In this document: positions 52,243-61,552 of the stretch, piece by piece | How positions within the stretch are numbered: the stretch's first letter is position 1 | Layout: each line of letters starts with the position of its first letter | From: an uncultured bacterium | GTDB lineage: Bacteria > Fidelibacterota > Marinisomatia > Marinisomatales > UBA1611 | Length of the DNA: 64,000 bases | Direction of reading: 5' to 3' | Assembly (NCBI GenBank): GCA_965660855.1 | Contig: CBFIBM010000001.1 | Coordinates: 192,001 to 256,000 of the forward strand | The notes under the pieces: model-generated | The model's input: only the letters and a program-made list of their open reading frames with translations | Database searches by the model: none | Told to the model about the DNA's origin: nothing | Position numbers and translations under genes: made by a program

Positions 52243-52330
52243 GGAGAGGTGGCCGAGTGGCTGAAGGCGCACGCTTGGAAAGCGTGTTTACGTTAATAGC
52301 GTAACGTGGGTTCGAATCCCACTCTCTCCG
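52243..52330 (+). tRNA. tRNA-Ser(GGA); CCA not encoded
   Basis: Acceptor GGAGAGG/TCTCTCC, anticodon arm CACGC-TTGGAAA-GCGTG, long variable arm, T arm GTGGG-TTCGAAT-CCCAC and discriminator G. Confidence 0.97.
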
Positions 52331-52395
52331 CAATCTCAATTTTATTTATTAAAAAACCCTGTTAATAAAATTAGATTTTAAATATTTTACTTCTG

Positions 52396-53265
52396 ATGGG
52401 TTATGTATATATCATTTTTAGTGCACTTTCATTCTGTTTCATGACAATATTTGTTAAAATTGCAGGGCATGAAGTAAATACTTTACAAATTGTTTTTTTT
52501 AGAGGTCTTTTCACTTTATGTGTTACTTATTATTTCATTTATAAAAATAAAATTTATATTTGGGGAAATAATAAAAAAAAACTAATTAGTAGAGGATTAA
52601 GTGGAACGTTTGCTCTTTTTTTTGTTTACGAATCAATTCAAAGGATAACCCTTTCAGAAGCCACAGTAATTCAATATTTGTATCCAATTTTTACGATTAT
52701 ATTAGCTGCGATATTTTTGGGAGAAGAGTCTACAAAAAAAAATTATCTTGCAATATTTATCGGATTATTTGGAGTATATATCGTATTAGATTTTCCTTTT
52801 TTAAATAGTAATATTTCATTTAATTATAATAATGTCTTGATAGCTTTAATTGGATCTGTTCTAACTGCCCTAGCGTATGTACTTGTAAGGTCATGTTCAA
52901 ATGATGATGAATCACCTTATGTTATAATGTTTTATTTTCCATTGTTTACTGTTCCGTTAAGTTTACCATTTACAATTATAAATTGGTCGAACCCAAGTTT
53001 AAATACCTGGTTTTATATTTTTATGGTAGGTTTATGTACTCAGCTTGGACAGACTTTTTTAACGTTTGGATATAAATTAATACCAGCGAGTAAAGCCGCA
53101 ACAGCTAGTTATGTTCAAGTGCCATTTGCTGCTTTGGGAGGTTTTATGTTCTTCAATGAAGAGATCTCGATAAATTTTTTAGCAGGATCATTAATAATTT
53201 TTGTTGCAGTTTCTCTTATCATTGACAAAAAAAAGAAAAAGAAAAATAAAGTTTTTACGCCTTAA
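52396..53265 (+). CDS. DMT/EamA family transporter
   Basis: About 10 TM segments with two EamA repeats (VFFRG, YLYPIF..AAIFLGE, SYVQV..F.E). Confidence 0.9.
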   Translation: MGYVYIIFSALSFCFMTIFVKIAGHEVNTLQIVFFRGLFTLCVTYYFIYKNKIYIWGNNKKKLISRGLSGTFALFFVYESIQRITLSEATVIQYLYPIFTIILAAIFLGEESTKKNYLAIFIGLFGVYIVLDFPFLNSNISFNYNNVLIALIGSVLTALAYVLVRSCSNDDESPYVIMFYFPLFTVPLSLPFTIINWSNPSLNTWFYIFMVGLCTQLGQTFLTFGYKLIPASKAATASYVQVPFAALGGFMFFNEEISINFLAGSLIIFVAVSLIIDKKKKKKNKVFTP

Positions 53266-53337
53266 GTCTGTTTATTCATGTCTTTATAAGTAATATTAGT
53301 TGTTGTATTTTTCAATAATTTTATCTGAAGGCTTAAA

Positions 53338-53685
53338 ATGTTTTTAAAAAAAATAACAATATTATTTTTATTAATTGTTATCTGTTGTACTCATAATTAT
53401 GAACCTGTAATAACCTCTATCATTGCTGAACCAAATCCGGTACAAATCAATGGCTTAGTTTTTTTAGTTTGTAATGCAAAAGATGATGATACATCAAGCT
53501 CTATGAAAGATGAAGAGTTAACCTATGAATGGATTGCTGCATCAGGAGATATTTTAGTTGGTGAGAGTTTTGAAAATGCGACATGGGTAGCACCATCTGA
53601 ACCCGGAATATATTCGATCACTTGTAAGGTATTAGATCAATATAACGGCACAGATATTAAAACAATTAGTGTTGAAGTACAGTGA
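53338..53685 (+). CDS. Lipoprotein with a single PKD/Ig-like domain
   Basis: Cys after the signal peptide; LTYEW...G...WVAP..PGIYSITCKVLD. Confidence 0.75.
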   Translation: MFLKKITILFLLIVICCTHNYEPVITSIIAEPNPVQINGLVFLVCNAKDDDTSSSMKDEELTYEWIAASGDILVGESFENATWVAPSEPGIYSITCKVLDQYNGTDIKTISVEVQ

Positions 53686-54581
53686 AGAAAATCTTAAAGT
53701 CAAAATGGATATATTTAACAGTCTTAATCAATATAAGCTGTGAAATAGACAACAATCCAATTCAAATAATCCTCATGGAATCTAGTAGCTCTGAAGTATC
53801 TTCTAATGAAGTAGTTAAATTTTATGTTCAGGCTGTAGATGGAGATGGCGACAAACTTTCTTATAGTTGGGGCTCGTCCGGAGGTCAGTTTATGGTCCAA
53901 AGGGATACAGCTTATTGGACTGCTCCAAATCGAGGTGGGTTTTATAATATCACCTGTAAAGTATCAGATGGTGTTGGTTCATCTGATGCAAGTTCATTAT
54001 CGATAAAAGTTTTAGCTCTAGTACCTGTTCCAGTAAATGGGTTAGAATGGTTATTAGAAGATAATGGTCTTACAAATGGACCTAACACATCAAATGATGA
54101 TAAAAACGGAATAAATAATTTTTGGAATGGTCTTGCAGGAGATGCAGATTATGGATGGAATATTACTGCTCCAATTGAGGCAGCTAATGAAATATCACAA
54201 TCACTTCAATTTAAAGTTGAAGATAGTGCAAATTGTGGAGGATCCAATCCAGATGAACAGCGGGGGAAAGCAACAGCCGATATTCAAATTAATGGTGAAA
54301 CACCTGTTGTCTTAGATATAGATTTTTCTGGTATTGGTGAAGCCCAATCTGCAGGTTACGATTTGATTGAATTTAAGCTGAATGGATCTATAATAGGTAG
54401 TGGTCAAGCACCTGGTGGTGGACTAGGCTGTACTTCAGATTCGGTTACTGTAATCCCAGCAAACCAACAAACACTTAATCCTGGACCGCATAGCCTTATT
54501 ATTGATTTTACAACCAATGATGGTTTATTTCATGTAGATGCTTATTATGAAATAAAATTGAAACTAAGACTTGAAAATTAG
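53682..54581 (+). CDS. Lipoprotein with PKD/Ig-like domain and Gly-rich C-terminal domain
   Basis: Lipobox NISC and DGDGDKLSYSW..SGG..WTAP..GFYNITCKVSDG; GTGA overlap with the upstream gene. Confidence 0.75.
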   Translation: MKKILKSKWIYLTVLINISCEIDNNPIQIILMESSSSEVSSNEVVKFYVQAVDGDGDKLSYSWGSSGGQFMVQRDTAYWTAPNRGGFYNITCKVSDGVGSSDASSLSIKVLALVPVPVNGLEWLLEDNGLTNGPNTSNDDKNGINNFWNGLAGDADYGWNITAPIEAANEISQSLQFKVEDSANCGGSNPDEQRGKATADIQINGETPVVLDIDFSGIGEAQSAGYDLIEFKLNGSIIGSGQAPGGGLGCTSDSVTVIPANQQTLNPGPHSLIIDFTTNDGLFHVDAYYEIKLKLRLEN

Positions 54582-54589
54582 GTATTTAG

Positions 54590-55618
54590 TTGAATTTTAT
54601 TTTAAAATACTTCAACATTGTTTTATTTTTCTTTTTTGTTTTAATAATTCAAACAAGCTGTGAGCTTGAAAATAAACCTATTGAGATATTATCTTTAGAA
54701 TCAAGTGACTCAATCACAATTTCTGGAGATACCATCAAGCTATATGTGGAAGCATTTGATTACGATGGCGATAAAATATCCTATAGTTGGGATGCATCTG
54801 AAGGCCAATTTTTAGTAAAAAAAGATACTGCATTTTGGATTGCTCCAAACCAAAATGGATACTACAATATAACATGTAAAGTCTCTGATGGTGTTGGATC
54901 TTCAGATGCTAAGGCTGTTGGAATAAGGGTAGTCGGTAAAATTATTAAAGGACAAGTTTTAAATGCTATAGATGGAACTCCAATTTTTGGCGCTACAGTC
55001 AGTATTGACGATAATGATGGAATATCAGATGTGGAAGGTAATTATATTTTATTTATGGATTATGATCCAGGTGACCAATTTAGTTCTTTAGCTTCCAAGG
55101 ATCTTTTCTGCCCTTATGTTGGTTCATTTCTAATACCTAATGATTACTATGAAAATAAGTATACCTATAACTTATCTATGAGCCCTATACCGTCAGAAGG
55201 TGAAATTAGATTGGTACTCAATTGGGGGGCTGAGCCTAGAGATTTAGATTCTCATTTAAAAACACCTTTAATTGATGATGTTGAGTATCATATTTTGTAT
55301 AGTAATAAAGGGAGCTCTGATAGCGTACCTTTTGTAAAACTTGACATTGATGATACATCTGGGTTTGGTCCAGAAACATTTACAATATCTCAATTATTTG
55401 AGGGCAAATATTCGTATTATATATATCAATTCTCTGCAGACGCAACTTTATCAACTTCAAATGCTACAATTAATATTTACAATTCACCTGATTGCGAAGG
55501 AGAAACAATTATAGTCCCTAATTCTGGTATAGGGAGATATTGGTATGTTTGTGATATTGATGGTGGTACTGGAGCGATTGATGTTATAAATATAATTCAA
55601 GCTTCAGAGCCCAACTGA
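54590..55618 (+). CDS. Lipoprotein with Ig-like, carboxypeptidase-regulatory-like and YfaP/DUF2135-like domains
   Basis: Lipobox QTSC, the same Ig domain, IKGQVLNAIDGTPIFGATV and LNWGAEPRDLDSHL..DIDDTSGFGPET. Confidence 0.75.
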   Translation: MNFILKYFNIVLFFFFVLIIQTSCELENKPIEILSLESSDSITISGDTIKLYVEAFDYDGDKISYSWDASEGQFLVKKDTAFWIAPNQNGYYNITCKVSDGVGSSDAKAVGIRVVGKIIKGQVLNAIDGTPIFGATVSIDDNDGISDVEGNYILFMDYDPGDQFSSLASKDLFCPYVGSFLIPNDYYENKYTYNLSMSPIPSEGEIRLVLNWGAEPRDLDSHLKTPLIDDVEYHILYSNKGSSDSVPFVKLDIDDTSGFGPETFTISQLFEGKYSYYIYQFSADATLSTSNATINIYNSPDCEGETIIVPNSGIGRYWYVCDIDGGTGAIDVINIIQASEPN

Positions 55619-55770
55619 AATAAAGAATTCAATCAAATTAATTTTATAAAATTATTGTTGCAAAAAAGTATATTTTTTGTACATTCTGACCTCTTTATGA
55701 TAGAAGATGATCTTTTTCATCTATTTTTTATAAAAGAGATTAATAATAACAACAATAGGAATATAGTTTA

Positions 55771-55983
55771 ATGAGTGATACTAGAAAAGGAACGGTTAAG
55801 TGGTTCAATGATTCTAAAGGATATGGATTTCTTACACCGTCTGAAGGTGGTAAAGACCTTTTTGTTCACATGAGTGAAATCAAAATGGAAGGTTTTAAAA
55901 CGTTAAAAGAAGGACAAGAAGTAGAATATGAAGAGGGTGAAAGTGATAAAGGCCCTTGTGCGACTAACGTTCATCCACAGTAG
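55771..55983 (+). CDS. Cold-shock protein
   Basis: [18 protein letters not shown] and GFKTLKEGQ. Confidence 0.97.
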
Positions 55984-56032
55984 AATATTAATCTTAGAAA
56001 ATTTTTTATTACATATTTTAAGGATATAATAA

Positions 56033-56347
56033 ATGTTTTACGAAGATATTAATATTACAAAAAGAAAGACAATCACCAATGGTGCGAAGTATGACTTTTT
56101 TATTTACGACATGATGTCTCTAGAAAAAGAAATTTCTAAAGGAAAGTTCGGAAAAGGAGATACCACTATTAGTAGATTTAAAAATTACAAAATGCTTGAT
56201 GATGAAACTGGTGAGATGCTTGACGTGAAGATAAGATGCTCAAAAAGGATAGATGATGCTCTTGATGGGCTTGACCCCACGGAAAGTAAAAAAGTATTAG
56301 ACAAATGTCTAAAAGAGTTAGAAAATAGAGGTCTTGTTAAACAATAA
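56033..56347 (+). CDS. Hypothetical cytoplasmic protein
   Basis: 104-aa ORF with an AAGGA SD, followed by a terminator; no family recognised. Confidence 0.65.
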   Translation: MFYEDINITKRKTITNGAKYDFFIYDMMSLEKEISKGKFGKGDTTISRFKNYKMLDDETGEMLDVKIRCSKRIDDALDGLDPTESKKVLDKCLKELENRGLVKQ

Positions 56348-56376
56348 TTAAGATTTTAAGTTCTACCAAGTACTTT

Positions 56377-56412
56377 AACAAAAACCCTTGTATTAACAAG
56401 GGTTTTTGTTTT
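56377..56412. terminator. Intrinsic terminator with a 15-bp stem
   Basis: AACAAAAACCCTTGT-ATTA-ACAAGGGTTTTTGTT. Confidence 0.9.
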
Positions 56413-56547
56413 CCAAAAATACCGAATTTTATTAATTTTTTTTTATATAATATTAGTCAGTTTGTGTAAGTTTTGACTTACAGATTGCGATAATATTTTA
56501 AAATCTTGCTCAAATATTAGTTTTTTTAAATACTAAAAGATTTTTTT

Positions 56548-56636
56548 GGAGGGGTGGCAGAGCCTGGCTGATTGCACTAGTCTTGAAAACTAGCAAGGGT
56601 TAATACCCTTCGGGGGTTCGAATCCCTCCCCCTCCG
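56548..56636 (+). tRNA. tRNA-Ser(TGA); CCA not encoded
   Basis: Acceptor GGAGGGG/CCCCTCC, anticodon arm CTAGT-CTTGAAA-ACTAG, variable arm AAGGGT..ACCCTT and TTCGAAT loop. Confidence 0.97.
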
Positions 56637-56722
56637 CACCTTATTTTAGATGTTTCTCCTTGACAAACTCTCTTTTACAGCATTTTTAATTTTTAAATAT
56701 TCTACGAGGATCTATGTTATTC

Positions 56723-56755
56723 GGGAACATTAAAGGAACATTAAGGGAACATTGT
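56723..56755 (+). repeat. Three tandem 11-bp repeats (GGGAACATTAA, AGGAACATTAA, GGGAACATTGT); candidate integrase arm sites
   Basis: Read directly, about 85 nt inside the left att repeat. Confidence 0.85.
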
Positions 56756-56858
56756 GACCCCCAACGCTTTTTAAAATTTGTTAAAGTTGGGAGTTTAAAT
56801 TTCAAGTAATGCTGTAAGACACATTGAATATTTATCTTAACTTGATTATTATTAATCT

Positions 56859-57098
56859 ATGTTTAATTATATTATTTTAATTGTATCTTTTTCATTATTT
56901 AGTTGCGTCGATATTACTTATAACCTGAATAGTAATGACAAAACGCTAGTTTTAACTTATTTGGAAGAAAGTAAGTGCGTTGAGGAAGCAATATTTAGTG
57001 AGGCTTAAGTTATTATGGATTCTGCAGATTGCATTTTTGAAGGAAACACTTGGTATCCTGAATGCATATCGAAACTAACATACTTAAAAGAACAATAA
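56859..57098 (+). pseudogene. Lipoprotein gene with in-frame TAA at 57006-57008
   Basis: MFNYIILIVSFSLFSC...FSEA*VIMDSADCIFEGNTWYPECISKLTYLKEQ*. The second stop overlaps the next ATG (TAATG). Confidence 0.65.
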
Positions 57099-57538
57099 TG
57101 TTTAAAAAATATATATCAATTGTTATATTGTGTTTTTTTTTCAGTAGCTGCGCTGACTCAATTTTAGATAGTAGTAGTGACATCATAATTGAAAACAACA
57201 TTTCTATAATTGGTACATGGACATCTTCAGATTGGTGCATATACGAAGATTTTACCTGTTCAGGAAATTGCGTTGGTGGAACCTTTGCAGATTTATGGAT
57301 TTCAGCTGAAAATATAGATCCTCTTTTTACAATTACATTCTCTGAAGATAGCACAGCTCAGTGGAAAGCATTATATGATGATGACATTTCCGATCTTGTT
57401 TTTTCAAAAAATTTGGATGACTCATATAGCCTAATTGCGGATGCGAATGATATTTTTCAAGTAAAACTGTCAAATTCTAATATGCTATTATACTGGCTCG
57501 AAGATGATAGGTGTATAGAATATACTTTAACTAAATAA
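57098..57538 (+). CDS. Acidic Cys-containing lipoprotein with lipocalin-like GxW motif
   Basis: Start refined to ATG 57098 (MFKKYISIVILCFFFSSC); IIGTW; ends RCIEYTLTK. Confidence 0.75.
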   Translation: MFKKYISIVILCFFFSSCADSILDSSSDIIIENNISIIGTWTSSDWCIYEDFTCSGNCVGGTFADLWISAENIDPLFTITFSEDSTAQWKALYDDDISDLVFSKNLDDSYSLIADANDIFQVKLSNSNMLLYWLEDDRCIEYTLTK

Positions 57539-57576
57539 TATCAAGTTTTTCTTTAAATTATATTTATTAGGTTATT

Positions 57577-58701
57577 ATGAAAAATTTATTATTAATCATA
57601 TTTTTATTGGTTTTTGCTTGTAATGGTACCAAACCTGTTGATGTATCAAATCTTGTTGAAAGAGGGGGATTGACCTATTACTATCAATATCATTCTTTTT
57701 TTAAAGGAGACGGTGTTAAAGTCCCCGATAATCCTTTTAGTGGAAAAGCTATTAAGTATTATCCAACTGGTGAAGTTCAGTTAAAAGGAATATTTAAAAA
57801 TGGGATACTTATTCAGAGTTCCTATTTGGATGTATATGGTAATATTTTGGAAAGCATGGAAATAAATGGAGATACTACAATATCTATCGAATGGTACAGC
57901 AATGGACTAAAAAGATGGGAGAATAGAACAATAGATGGTAACAGTGTTTTTATTAATAGATGGCATGAAGATGGAATGAAACGTAAAGAACCTTTTAAAT
58001 GGGAAAAGGAAGCACTTGAAAATGACGATTCTAACTTTGAAGGGGAAAGGACTCTCCATTATATCATAAAGAAACCATTATATAATGCAGAAAAACAAGA
58101 TGTTTTATTTTTCATGCATGGACACACTGAAAATTTATGGAACTATCAAGATCCTATAATAAATCAGTTTGGTGATAATTATTTTACCGTAATTCTCCAA
58201 GCTCCTTACGAATTATGGATAACCTCTAATAAGTTTACATGGTTTGACTTTAGATCTTCTAATTTTTTTGATGACTTTACAGCTAATGAAGAGCAATTAA
58301 ATGTTACTTTAGAAAAAGTATTGTTTAGTATTGATAAAATTATTGAAAAAGAAAACATTAATCCTAAAAGGGTATTTGTTGGTGGCCATAGCCAAGGTGG
58401 AATCATGGCATGTAAATTAGCGTTAGAATATCCTGATGTAATAGATGGTTTTATTGCTCACAATACTTTTTTACCCAATGTTTATCAAACAAAAAAAGAT
58501 AAAACTAAATATTCTTCGTTGAGAGGGTTAGTAATCAATGGTGAATACGATAAAAGAATAGATCCAATTAATTCAAAAAAAATAGCAAATACATTTATTG
58601 AGTTAGGGGTAAATATAAAATCAAAAGAATTGAAAATGGGTCATGAGTTTCCAAAATCATCAAGAGGTGTGATTAACGATTGGATGTCTCAAAATAATTA
58701 A
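57577..58701 (+). CDS. Lipoprotein with MORN-variant repeats fused to an alpha/beta hydrolase (carboxylesterase-like)
   Basis: Lipobox VFAC, PFSG...YYPTG / WYSNG / WHEDG repeats, FMHG, GHSQGG, GEYD and MGHE. Confidence 0.85.
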   Translation: MKNLLLIIFLLVFACNGTKPVDVSNLVERGGLTYYYQYHSFFKGDGVKVPDNPFSGKAIKYYPTGEVQLKGIFKNGILIQSSYLDVYGNILESMEINGDTTISIEWYSNGLKRWENRTIDGNSVFINRWHEDGMKRKEPFKWEKEALENDDSNFEGERTLHYIIKKPLYNAEKQDVLFFMHGHTENLWNYQDPIINQFGDNYFTVILQAPYELWITSNKFTWFDFRSSNFFDDFTANEEQLNVTLEKVLFSIDKIIEKENINPKRVFVGGHSQGGIMACKLALEYPDVIDGFIAHNTFLPNVYQTKKDKTKYSSLRGLVINGEYDKRIDPINSKKIANTFIELGVNIKSKELKMGHEFPKSSRGVINDWMSQNN

Positions 58702-58728
58702 TGTTTAGGTATTTTTTGTTTAAAAAAT

Positions 58729-58750
58729 GGGAACACTAAGGGAATACCAA
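58729..58750 (+). repeat. Two tandem 11-bp repeats (GGGAACACTAA, GGGAATACCAA); candidate integrase arm sites
   Basis: Same motif, period and orientation as 56723-56755; 27 nt before the right att repeat. Confidence 0.8.
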
Positions 58751-58777
58751 AACATGATTTTTAGATAGGGAGAACAA

Positions 58778-58801
58778 GGGTTCGAATCCCTCCACCTCCG
58801 C
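58778..58801 (+). repeat. attR-like copy of the tRNA-Ser(TGA) 3' end
   Basis: GGGTTCGAATCCCTCCACCTCCGC versus tRNA GGGTTCGAATCCCTCCCCCTCCGC (one mismatch). Confidence 0.9.
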
Positions 58802-58948
58802 GAATTCTTACATATTTCCAATGAAAAAATAAAAGCTATAAGGTTTGAGATTCAGTTAATTATTTAACTTTTCAAGTTAAATAATAATCCTTATCCATTA
58901 TTTTTTTTATTTATGATATGATAGTTAAATTTTAATAATAAGGTTGTT

Positions 58949-59353
58949 ATGAAAATTTTAGAACAATTCATTCATTTTTGTATTGTATGTTGGACTCTTG
59001 CAGGTATAGGAGCTATAAATTCAGCTTTAAACTTTCCTCCACAAAGTTATGAAGGAATTTTTTATTTTATTTTTTTTTTATTGTTAGGAATTATAGGAAA
59101 ATATATTACCGCAGTCATTTATTATGATATTAGATCCTATTTATCAATTTTATTAGCAATATTTTTTTATTTACCTAACTTCCTAGGATTACTATATATA
59201 AAAAATTTTTTTTTTAGTGTATTTATTCTTACTTTATCAGTCTTAGTCATAAATAAGCTGTTATCAAAAAATTTACTTAAATGGAAAAATATTTTTACAT
59301 TTCGATTTTTTTATAGATCTTATTTCGAATTAAAAAAAGTATTAAAAAAATAA
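58949..59353 (+). CDS. Very AT-rich hypothetical membrane protein
   Basis: 134-aa ORF with about 4 hydrophobic segments and an AAGGT SD-like motif. Confidence 0.5.
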   Translation: MKILEQFIHFCIVCWTLAGIGAINSALNFPPQSYEGIFYFIFFLLLGIIGKYITAVIYYDIRSYLSILLAIFFYLPNFLGLLYIKNFFFSVFILTLSVLVINKLLSKNLLKWKNIFTFRFFYRSYFELKKVLKK

Positions 59354-59524
59354 TTTTAAACTTTATCAAGAAAATTAAAAACTATAATTATTCCTCAATG
59401 TTCTTGTTTTAAAACTTCTTAAATATTAGGAGCAAATGTAATATTAATTTAAGTTTTATATTGAGTTTCGCAGTAAAATTCACCTTTTTAAGTTTAACTT
59501 TATTTAATCAAAACACTACATAAT

Positions 59525-61552
59525 ATGAAAAATCCCAACTCATTTCTTTCAGAAAATAACCAACCTTTTGGTACTGTCCCTTTCAATAAAATAGAAACAA
59601 AATATTTTATCCCAGCTATCAAAGCTGGTATAAATGAAGCTGTCGAAAATATTAAAATAATTGTCCAAAACTCAGAGTTAGCAACTTTTGAAAATACAAT
59701 TTTGCCTCTTGAATTATCTTCAGAAAAACTTGATAATGTAAGCAGAGTTTATTTTCATCTTTTTGGCTCAGAATCAGATGAAGAATTTCAGAAATTAGCA
59801 TCTGAAATCAGTCCAATGTTGGCAAACCACACCAATGATATTATGCTTGATGAAAAATTATTTGAAAAAGTCAAATTTGTTTTCCAAAACCTAGTGACTA
59901 TAAAAGATGAGCAGGATAAGAAATTAACTGAGGTATGGTATAGTGAGTTTATAAGAAATGGAGCAAACCTTGATAAAAATCAAAAAATACAGCTTCGAAA
60001 ACTTGATGAGCAACTTTCTACTTTATCACCAAAATTTCAAAATAATAATCTAAAGGCTACAAACTCATTTGAGTTGTGGTTAAGAGATTCAGACTTATCA
60101 GGCTTGCCTAAAAGTGTTCTTGATAATGCGAAAAATGAAGCTATCTCAAAAGGTCAACCAGAAAAATGGCTGATAACATTGCAAGCGCCAAGTTTTTTAC
60201 CTTTTTTGACATTCTCAGACAACCGAGAATTAAGGAAAAAAATTATGTTAGCTAATGCTCAAAAATGTAATGGTGGTGAGTATGATAATACATCAATTTT
60301 AAAAAAAATTGTTAAGCTTAAACATCAAAGAGCAAACCTATTAGGTTATGAAAATTTTGCAGACTATATACTCGAAAAAAGAATGGCTAACAGTCAAAAA
60401 ATGATTTATCAATTACTAGATGACCTTTATGATTCATGTATTGAGTTAGCTAAAAAAGATTTAGAAAAAGTTGGAAATCTCGCTTTCGAGTTAGACGGAA
60501 TAGATGATTTACAACGATGGGATTTTGACTATTACAGTGAAAAATTGAAAAAAAGAATATATGATTTTAATGATGATGAACTTCGACCATATTTCAATTC
60601 TGATAATGTTATAAATGGAGTATTTGAAATAGCTAAACGGCTTTATGGGTTGGATTTTAAACTACTTGAAAATATTGATGTTTATCATGAAGATGTAAAA
60701 GTCTATGAAGTGACTTCAAATGAAGGTGATCATATAGGGATTCTCTATGAGGACTTATTCCCAAGGTCAACTAAAAGATCAGGTGCGTGGATGAATGAAC
60801 TTCGTTCTCAAGGAATGTATAGTGATGGTCTCAGAAGACCTCACGTCACTTTTACTTGTAATCTTACAAAGCCGACACCTGATAAACCTTCTTTATTAAC
60901 TCTCAGGGAAGTTGAGACAATTTTTCATGAATTTGGACACTGTCTACATGGATTACTTTCTGATTCAAAATATACATCAATAGGTGGAACATCTGTTTAT
61001 TGGGACTTTGTTGAACTTCCATCACAAATAATGGAAAATTGGGTAGTTGAAAAAGAGGCACTTCAATTATTCGCAAAACATTATAAAACAAACCAAACGA
61101 TTCCTGACCAATTAATAGATAAAATTAAAAATTCTAAAAAATTTCTTTCAGCTACTGCATGCCTAAGACAACTTTCCCTAGGCTATCTTGATATGGCTTG
61201 GTACGGCAAAGATAATGAAGTCGATGATGTTGAAAAATTTGAAAAAACCTCTGTAAGTAAGGCAGTCTTACTTCCAACTATTCCTGGAGCTTCAATCTCA
61301 TGTAGTTTTGGACATATTTTTGCAGGTGGATACTCTGCTGGTTATTATTCTTACAAATGGGCTGAAGTATTGGAAGCAGATGCATTCGAAAAGTTCAAAG
61401 AGGAAGGCATTTTTAACCAAGAAACTTCAAAAGCATTTCGTGATAATATTTTATCTAAAGGAAATCAAAAACACCCTATGGAACTATTTAAAGCTTTCAG
61501 AGGAAGAGAGCCAAAAATAGAAGCTTTATTGAAAAGAGAGGGCTTAAAATAA
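59525..61552 (+). CDS. M3A metallopeptidase (peptidyl-dipeptidase Dcp / oligopeptidase A family)
   Basis: KRSGAWM, FHEFGHCLH, DFVELPSQIME, HIFAGGYSAGYYSYKWAE and FRGREP. Confidence 0.95.
   Translation: MKNPNSFLSENNQPFGTVPFNKIETKYFIPAIKAGINEAVENIKIIVQNSELATFENTILPLELSSEKLDNVSRVYFHLFGSESDEEFQKLASEISPMLANHTNDIMLDEKLFEKVKFVFQNLVTIKDEQDKKLTEVWYSEFIRNGANLDKNQKIQLRKLDEQLSTLSPKFQNNNLKATNSFELWLRDSDLSGLPKSVLDNAKNEAISKGQPEKWLITLQAPSFLPFLTFSDNRELRKKIMLANAQKCNGGEYDNTSILKKIVKLKHQRANLLGYENFADYILEKRMANSQKMIYQLLDDLYDSCIELAKKDLEKVGNLAFELDGIDDLQRWDFDYYSEKLKKRIYDFNDDELRPYFNSDNVINGVFEIAKRLYGLDFKLLENIDVYHEDVKVYEVTSNEGDHIGILYEDLFPRSTKRSGAWMNELRSQGMYSDGLRRPHVTFTCNLTKPTPDKPSLLTLREVETIFHEFGHCLHGLLSDSKYTSIGGTSVYWDFVELPSQIMENWVVEKEALQLFAKHYKTNQTIPDQLIDKIKNSKKFLSATACLRQLSLGYLDMAWYGKDNEVDDVEKFEKTSVSKAVLLPTIPGASISCSFGHIFAGGYSAGYYSYKWAEVLEADAFEKFKEEGIFNQETSKAFRDNILSKGNQKHPMELFKAFRGREPKIEALLKREGLK

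Follow-up and report, generated by a model that had tools for sequence, protein, structure and literature searches.

In bacteriophage lambda, the sites P′1 to P′3 adjoin int, while P1 and P2 are located in the other arm of the attachment site. Genomic islands of the Islander type are reportedly called from an integrase gene located inside the island. Cis-mobilizable elements (CIMEs) are by definition decayed integrative and conjugative elements (ICEs) or integrative and mobilizable elements (IMEs) of Firmicutes (PMC5704250). In Prochlorococcus, the tycheposon work describes islands in which nothing but partial copies of tRNAs separates the elements and in which broken integrases and further partial tRNAs are scattered, and it labels tRNA-Ser(TGA) among its tRNAs; the term “arm-type” has no occurrence in its text (bioRxiv 10.1101/2020.12.28.424599). 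The locus described here lies in a stretch of 64,000 nts (positions 192,001 to 256,000 of contig CBFIBM010000001.1, assembly GCA_965660855.1; hereafter the window, in whose numbering positions are given) from an uncultured marine bacterium of the Marinimicrobia (SAR406). At the 3′ end of a tRNA-Ser(TGA) gene, positions 56638-58801 form an islet which is probably an integrase-less derivative of the temperate-phage-type integrative elements found at the SAR406 tRNA-Ser(TGA).

Like an integrated element of the lambda type, the islet displays core repeats, a regenerated target and arm repeats, with the difference that no integrase gene is present within 56638-58801. Its attachment features are the following:

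56548..56637, + strand: tRNA-Ser(TGA), intact (ARAGORN; Rfam RF00005, 51.5 bits), the 3′ end of which is the integration target
56614..56637, + strand: core copy 1 (attL core), from the T-arm to the 3′ end of the tRNA, in a 24-nt direct repeat
56638..56698, + strand: proximal spacer of the left (P′) arm, of the “84-nt type”, from the alignment
56699..56722, + strand: conserved 23/24-mer ATTCTACGAGGATCTATGTTATTC, near-invariant in the alignment of arms
56723..56755, + strand: three tandem 11-mers, GGGAACATTAA (56723), AGGAACATTAA (56734) and GGGAACATTGT (56745), candidate P′ arm-type integrase sites
56755..56766, + strand: TGACCCCCAACG, conserved in the alignment, which closes the repeat block
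58721..58777, + strand: right (P) arm, composed of AAAAAATG, two 11-mers and a 27-nt spacer ending in GAACAAG
58729..58750, + strand: the right-arm 11-mers GGGAACACTAA (58729) and GGGAATACCAA (58740)
58778..58801, + strand: core copy 2 (attR core), a displaced copy of the tRNA 3′ end, with 23/24 bases matching

The regenerated tRNA-Ser(TGA) gene is part of attL. A single mismatch, C to A in core copy 2, separates the two core copies, and core copy 1 is the core of two phage-like contigs, L048 and L052, except for the discriminator base. A preliminary description of this DNA, made from its letters, had reported the 24-bp duplication of the tRNA 3′ end with one mismatch (56614-56637 and 58778-58801) and a 3+2 arrangement of tandem 11-mers in a common orientation. 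Both were confirmed, all five 11-mers being on the + strand. It had also assigned the 11-mers of both arms to one type, which did not hold: the right units are of the GGGAACAC type (AC(T/C)) and the left units of the GGGAACAT type (ATT), so that the arms are not identical. Nothing except the tRNA scored above the Rfam threshold in the islet, and promoter and terminator scans gave counts at shuffle level.

A scan of the 2.09-Mb host assembly (81 contigs, 84% complete) for the core, allowing up to three mismatches, returned four sites, i.e., three tRNA-Ser 3′ ends and the extra copy of the islet. Exact GGGAACAYTAA occurs four times genome-wide, twice in the islet, and the 79 genome matches at up to one mismatch form a single cluster (at least two within 60 bp), which is that of the islet. 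That the repeats are a chance similarity or the leftover of a local tRNA duplication, with no element involved, has next to no probability. The 11-mer motif is indeed not enriched in the window (four matches at up to one mismatch against 3.0 expected, which is not significant). However, shuffles give no match to the 24-mer tRNA-Ser core at up to three mismatches (GGA-gene variant, three positions different), the genome contains just one extra core copy, and the whole architecture recurs at 26 other loci. Occupied and empty sites also differ at the tRNA end, and this reading is already contradicted.

The uninterrupted counterpart of the two islet ends was found in the phage-like contigs. In L052 (9.1 kb), a tail fibre gene (phrog_6320, 1.2e-37) is followed by an endolysin gene (phrog_315, 1.3e-42; GH108 and PG_binding_3), then by two copies of GAGGACACC, the core, a 107-nt spacer, the 23-mer and three copies of GAGGACACC. 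Inside the P′ arm, on the minus strand, come a 67-amino acid (aa) open reading frame (ORF) and a tyrosine integrase gene. The layout of L048 is the same, and both integrase genes run off their contigs. L052 and L048 are the undivided attP-like form (P arm, core, P′ arm) beside an integrase. The P arm of the window aligns just upstream of the core in L048 (82.6%) and L052 (79%), and its left arm just downstream of the same cores. Because the window arms align to both sides of the L048 and L052 cores, the window appears to hold the two halves of an attP split by integration. In relatives, where the preliminary description had advised a search for motif arrays, 11-mer arrays do adjoin a tyrosine integrase. 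For the small ORF next to the P′ arm, neither Pfam nor PHROG gave a family, and hence it cannot be called an excisionase.

The integrase fragment of L048 matches PF00589. Full-length homologues have 332-338 aa and form six clusters at E <= 1e-20 among 5.8 billion proteins, while 138 proteins of a representative library match the integrase at E <= 1e-3. The homologue P0002, which matches L048 and is the only integrase that can be paired with its own repeats, was modelled with AlphaFold2 (AF2) from a 46-sequence alignment, giving a pLDDT of 88.4. A first AF2 model, built from five sequences, was discarded (pLDDT 44.6). In the retained model, three strands and a helix (residues 3-51, block pLDDT 84-97) make up an N-terminal unit, after which come predicted core-binding and catalytic domains. 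The top structural matches were full-length lambda Int, the best being 1z1b_B (Z 17.8, root-mean-square deviation 6.8, 304 aligned residues), with model residues 1-332 aligned to chain residues 13-356 in a search made with the whole model. Lambda Int residues 75-356 alone gave a Z of 16.7 over 250 aligned residues. Pfam names no arm-binding family for residues 1-96 of the integrase. A sequence search of the PDB with the integrase gave nothing significant, its best tyrosine recombinase being 4a8e (E = 0.23) and its best match overall (E = 0.074) an unrelated protein. The predicted structure fits a heterobivalent integrase with a lambda-Int-like three-domain fold.

The resemblance to lambda-type attachment sites has several components, namely a core sequence also present in the target, short direct repeats, distinct from this core, in each of the two arms, a three-unit arm next to the integrase gene with two units in the other arm, and an integrase model that aligns to full-length lambda Int, including its N-terminal domain. 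Unlike in lambda, integration here targets a tRNA 3′ end, the 11-mer units are arranged strictly in tandem, the P arm spans just ~57 nts, and the unit sequence is hypervariable between close elements sharing one core. In addition, no Xis or IHF sites were identified, and the 11-mers are putative integrase-binding sites.

The same left arm was found in three other Marinimicrobia genomes and in 23 marine metagenome contigs. In all 27 aligned arms, the order is tRNA core, spacer (84 or ~107 nts), 23-mer, 11-mers and TGACCCC, with the qualification that the sequence upstream of the arm in two of the contigs (L046 and L055) is not a tRNA core and that three more contigs start inside the arm. Three 11-mers are present in 12 of these arms, two in 11 and one in 4, always at the same position. 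The proximal spacer of the window aligns with those of L034, L035, L042-L044, L047, L051, L053, L061 and L062. The conserved 23-mer, which contains ATTCTA-like words with a phase of ~10 nts and may be the site of an accessory factor, was detected in 4 of 54 family genomes at up to three mismatches. In a species-representative collection, it was found at six loci, three of which are Marinimicrobia or uncultured; the remaining three (Prevotella, Arenibacter and Lachnospiraceae) are assumed to be chance matches. IMG/VR contained no match to the 23-mer, no match to the pattern of P-arm end plus core, and no relative of the integrase protein. Literature on prophage or island integration at tRNA genes in SAR406/Marinimicrobia was limited to broad surveys among the works found, and the family is not claimed to be undescribed.

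Under this common arm layout, the cargo varies, including MBOAT acyltransferases, a beta-lactamase-like protein, a hydrolase and lipoproteins. For example, genome G001, of the same genus as the host, has the same tRNA and 27-nt block, three tandem GGGGTACTCAG-type 11-mers and an MBOAT acyltransferase as cargo. As for the spacers, inspection by eye showed that the 107-nt type starts with a hairpin and a T run right after the tRNA end (L037, L040, L041, L045, L049, L052, L054 and L056-L058), a feature absent from the 84-nt type of the window. It looks as if an element with the 107-nt spacer supplies a putative terminator to the tRNA.

The 11-mer word differs from one element to another. Besides the types already mentioned, GGGAACATT, GGGAACACC, GGGGACATT, GGGGACAAT, GGGGATACC, GGGGTACTC, GGGAGAACC and ATACACAAA were found. 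For the ten islets that are closed on the right, the left 8-mer was compared with the right arm. It was present in the element's own right arm without mismatch in 6/10, with one mismatch in the window, and with two to three in L035, L051 and L056. Mean mismatches were 0.8 for own arms against 1.86 for the arms of other elements (permutation p = 0.00035, a value that overstates independence because the elements are related). L047 and L062 are 97-100% identical over ~500 nts of cargo (alignment columns 300-700), and in their first 110 nts, 8 of the 11 differences are inside the 33-nt repeat block, with the same two substitutions in each unit. Since the words vary by element and own arms tend to match, the reading of the 11-mers as putative arm-type sites of a tRNA-targeting tyrosine integrase is well supported. 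This function had been proposed in the preliminary description, and the location of the repeats in both arms of an attP-like site by an integrase, the matching of own arms and the lambda-Int-like N-terminal domain in the model all speak for it.

Alternatively, the 11-mers could be operators or iterons of another DNA-binding protein, such as a cargo regulator or a replication initiator, or structural repeats without function. Binding by the integrase is a prediction, and tandem GGGAACAYY arrays occur in 12 unrelated viral contigs, so that such words are not unique to this attachment site. However, the distance between units and core is fixed in both arms of an attP-like site that adjoins an integrase, own arms tend to match whatever the cargo, the cargo is wholly different among elements with the same arm layout, and no replication gene was seen. 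An operator or iteron role is thus very improbable. The 12 contigs came from an IMG/VR search with the GGGAACAYY pattern, and none has the tRNA-Ser core or the 23-mer. Three AT-rich viral contigs (L134, L135 and L137) carry tandem GGGAACATT arrays of three to four units, likewise without core or 23-mer, which may be arm sites of other phages.

A bolder and rather doubtful proposal is that the 11-mers constitute an element-specific address code, which would be read by a co-varying N-terminal domain of the integrase and would pair attL with attR. According to the same proposal, a large number of phages and islets would compete for a single tRNA-Ser core and accumulate there in tandem, integrase-less islets with matched 3+2 units would be hitch-hikers movable by a phage with the same word, exchange of the 33-nt block would re-address cargo, and the window would contain a passenger with a slightly worn address.

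Between the arms, the interior of the islet contains three frames:

56859..57008, + strand: frame of 49 aa with a lipoprotein-like signal, left over from a 212-aa lipoprotein by truncation
57098..57538, + strand: predicted lipoprotein of 146 aa, without a Pfam family
57577..58701, + strand: predicted lipoprotein of 374 aa with an Abhydrolase_2 domain (PF02230, E = 7.3e-16) and a GHSQGG nucleophile motif

Pfam identified no recombinase in these frames, and tblastn of 56638-58950 with the family integrases, the small ORF and the endolysin found nothing except arm DNA read as protein. Hence the absence of a recombinase noted in the preliminary description was upheld, while its count of three lipoprotein frames has to be corrected for the first one, whose full-length counterpart in genome G034 has 212 aa; ~370 bp are missing from the window copy. 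The 146-aa gene shares 85-87% nt identity with L034 and L044 and 95% with L059. The N-terminal part of the 374-aa protein has a weak MORN-like match (MORN_2, E = 0.0029, below the cut-off). The classes of cargo found here, exported lipoproteins and an esterase-like hydrolase, recur as island cargo, and the hydrolase has paralogues in further islets linked to tRNAs, including one on contig C67 of the host genome. This C67 paralogue is 60% identical and lies in an islet with ATACACTGGT-type repeats, which ends, as judged by eye, in a tRNA-Pro(TGG)-like 3′ fragment. Repeats similar to those of C67 were seen in contig C12 of genome G030, adjoining longer tRNA-Ser-like fragments. In L125 (G069:C42), a hydrolase homologue located immediately after tRNA-Lys(TTT) lies between the copies of a direct repeat of ~130 nts.

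The islet, or most of it, was detected in 19 sequencing runs of 9 studies, 8 of these runs being possible source samples, and its right junction is bridged by contigs from runs that were not flagged as possible sources. Logan contigs of four runs (X1, X13, X14 and X19) were compared with 55000-60500. A fourth 11-mer copy is present in one contig of X19, and X13 and X14 have left units of the GGGAACACC type. Position 58745 reads C instead of T in the contigs of X13 and X14, the two other runs covering it. A 149-bp deletion (57044-57192), which removes the start of the 146-aa gene, was found in X13 (depth 17.4) and X1 (depth 2.5). The contigs of the four runs contained neither a precise 56637/58802 joint nor a circular joint; because contigs drop rare forms, this result carries no information on excision. 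Those joints that did occur correspond to replacements by other islets or are poorly supported (56665-58947, 56729-57552 and 56703-59401). The truncated lipoprotein, the core mismatch, the ATT against AC(T/C) units of the two arms and the 149-bp deletion variant are marks of decay in the window copy, which support the view of the islet as an integrase-less derivative.

PF00589 is matched in the host genome by two Xer-like genes, by a frameshifted integrase gene near tRNA-Phe on another contig and by an 87-aa fragment. The frameshifted gene (C7:90090-91500) is split into three frames (85, 195 and 90 aa) beside tRNA-Phe(GAA), near the contig end, and looks like a second decayed integrative element. 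The 87-aa frame (C1:272161-272325), 16 kb past the end of the window, has a C-terminal PF00589 match of 24.6 bits, below the cut-off, and a weak similarity to the phage-family integrase (E = 0.01).

Comparison of the locus between relatives, also suggested in the preliminary description, showed different cargo between conserved ends as well as empty sites. Among 28 family loci, at least 12 have gltX directly behind tRNA-Ser(TGA). Within genus g12, G064 and G032 have empty sites that match the sequence following the attR core of a 1.1-kb islet in G067, the match beginning one base after this core. The comparison of empty with occupied sites thus supports a putative site-specific insertion at the tRNA end. 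Of the 26 loci other than that of the window, 6 have integrase sequence: it stays open as far as the contig end in L048 and L052, is frameshifted with a stop in L040 and L049, and is reduced to fragments of 73 aa in L045 and 63 aa in L055. The 550-bp islet of G034 has kept 3+2 ATACACAAA units and a 74-aa endolysin fragment. In L042 and G005, only a left-arm scar is left, and it is followed at once by the 134-aa gene found next to the islet in the window.

Taken as an integrase-less derivative, the islet is composed as follows. Its left end is an attL, with the regenerated tRNA end as core and then the P′ arm with three arm-type 11-mers, while its right end is an attR, with the two 11-mers of the P arm and then the displaced core copy. 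In autonomous relatives, the P′ arm is adjoined on its inner side by the small ORF and the lambda-Int-like integrase gene, both in minus orientation, and the tail and lysis genes extend as far as the P arm. In the window, this phage-type interior is missing, three exported-protein genes, one of them truncated, being present between the arms. The N-terminal domain of the integrase would bind the 11-mers, the sequence of which would serve as an element-specific address. The islet would have originated by internal deletion and by recombination between tandem elements sharing conserved arm flanks, a process that would also reshuffle arms and cargo, and it would now be a fixed, slowly eroding part of the chromosome of the population.

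Several observations weigh against this account. The G+C content of the islet (0.297) equals that of the window (0.302), so that composition gives no sign of foreign origin. Neither integrase, small ORF nor any trace of phage genes is present, and the cargo is not phage-like, which makes a simple one-step deletion of a prophage insufficient. The window and L059 are 95.3% identical over 825 nts, yet L059 has another spacer type, GGGGACAAT units and another right flank. Such near-identical cargo with different arms, as also in L047 and L062, shows recent exchange. Finally, most integrase-less siblings keep perfectly uniform 11-mers, with exactly matching arms in 6/10, which would also fit sites kept by selection.

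These points bear on a second possibility, namely that the islet is an active non-autonomous cassette with working attL and attR. A phage of identical 11-mer specificity, infecting the cell or located nearby, would provide the integrase (and the directionality factor) for its excision, transfer and re-integration, and exported-protein cargo would thereby be swapped at tRNA-Ser. Both arms and both cores are present, and nine of the ten closed islets lack integrase sequence, yet six of the ten keep their uniform, exactly matching 11-mers. The same cargo is found with different arms and flanks at 95-100% identity, and homologous cargo exists in another genus (G034, 73-85% nt identity). Five hosts that share the window's flank of a cold-shock protein (Csp) and a 104-aa ORF have five different 11-mer types at this tRNA, and tandem arrays, which allow accretion, were found in G034, L045, L051, L056, L060 and L062. 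Nevertheless, no cognate integrase was found in the 84%-complete host genome or in 400 other genomes of the phylum, a search of 401 phylum genomes having returned one match at 28% identity, and no integrase-bearing member with units of the GGGAACAT/C type was recovered. Moreover, the left and right units of the window differ, its core copy is mismatched, its cargo is itself decaying, the islet is lost from relatives through ordinary deletions, with a left-arm scar remaining, instead of through precise excision, and right arms and cores erode in G034, L044 and G030. Homologous exchange of patches between the conserved sequences bordering the repeat block can account for reassortment without an integrase. 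An active cassette is hence unlikely; what speaks for mobilization in trans is that cargo and arms reassort at 95-100% identity and that most integrase-less siblings keep uniform, matched units.

The preliminary description had favoured movement in trans, with cis sites that appeared intact. The second part of this claim was not supported, given the core mismatch, the difference between left and right 11-mers and the drift of one unit (58745, which is C in two other runs), and neither was the first part, as no cognate integrase was found in the 84%-complete host genome. Its alternative of an element that lost its integrase fits better, given siblings with integrase fragments, endolysin fragments and eroded arms.

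Among described elements, CIMEs are similar in that attL and attR are retained while integration and transfer genes are lost, and the islet fits the published description (PMC5704250); its relatives also form tandem arrays. The difference is that the autonomous relatives, with their tail fibre and endolysin, resemble tailed phages and not ICEs, and that no conjugation or mobilization genes were seen in any locus. We read the islet as a remnant of phage origin, similar to a CIME, in which arms and cargo reassort. A further resemblance is to the degenerate remnants of tycheposons, which are those of a streamlined marine bacterium, with the differences that no replication module (primase, helicase) is present in the islet, that the relatives have phage genes, and that the host belongs to another phylum. 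The absence of an integrase gene sets the islet apart from Islander islands. Unlike an integron cassette, which has attC hairpin sites and relies on an IntI-type integrase with attI, it is bordered by copies of a tRNA 3′ end with direct repeats, and no IntI is present. A phage satellite similar to phage-inducible chromosomal islands (PICIs) has its own integrase, replication and packaging-hijack genes, while the islet genes are three exported-protein frames only.

Upstream of the islet, tRNA-Ser(GGA) and tRNA-Ser(TGA) are 4.2 kb apart in the window (52243-56547), separated by a membrane-protein gene, PKD-domain lipoproteins, the cold-shock protein and the 104-aa ORF. In 10 of the 28 family loci, a second, GGA-type tRNA-Ser 3′ end is located 124-146 nts upstream of the TGA tRNA end, i.e., the genes are nearly adjacent, and in G067 the GGA tRNA gene is 18 nts upstream (ARAGORN). 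No second copy of the core of the GGA gene was found in the window. Downstream, the 134-aa membrane-protein gene and an M3 oligopeptidase gene (58949-61552) are situated between the islet and gltX. In L058, the M3 gene comes after the attR core, without the 134-aa gene. Region 58949-61552 may be older island content.

For annotation, the islet is to be labelled as an integrase-less remnant flanked by attachment sites and not as a new class of mobile element. Beyond this label, SAR406, which is abundant and uncultured, now has an identified attachment-site architecture and a candidate family of temperate phages. The combination of one core, different arm words and matching arms offers a testable case for how tandem elements could keep their identities while cargo is reshuffled. 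The analysis also accounts for the hypervariable spot formed by tRNA-Ser, the islet and gltX, at which surface-related genes are gained and lost, among them those for exported lipoproteins, an esterase-like hydrolase and MBOAT acyltransferases.

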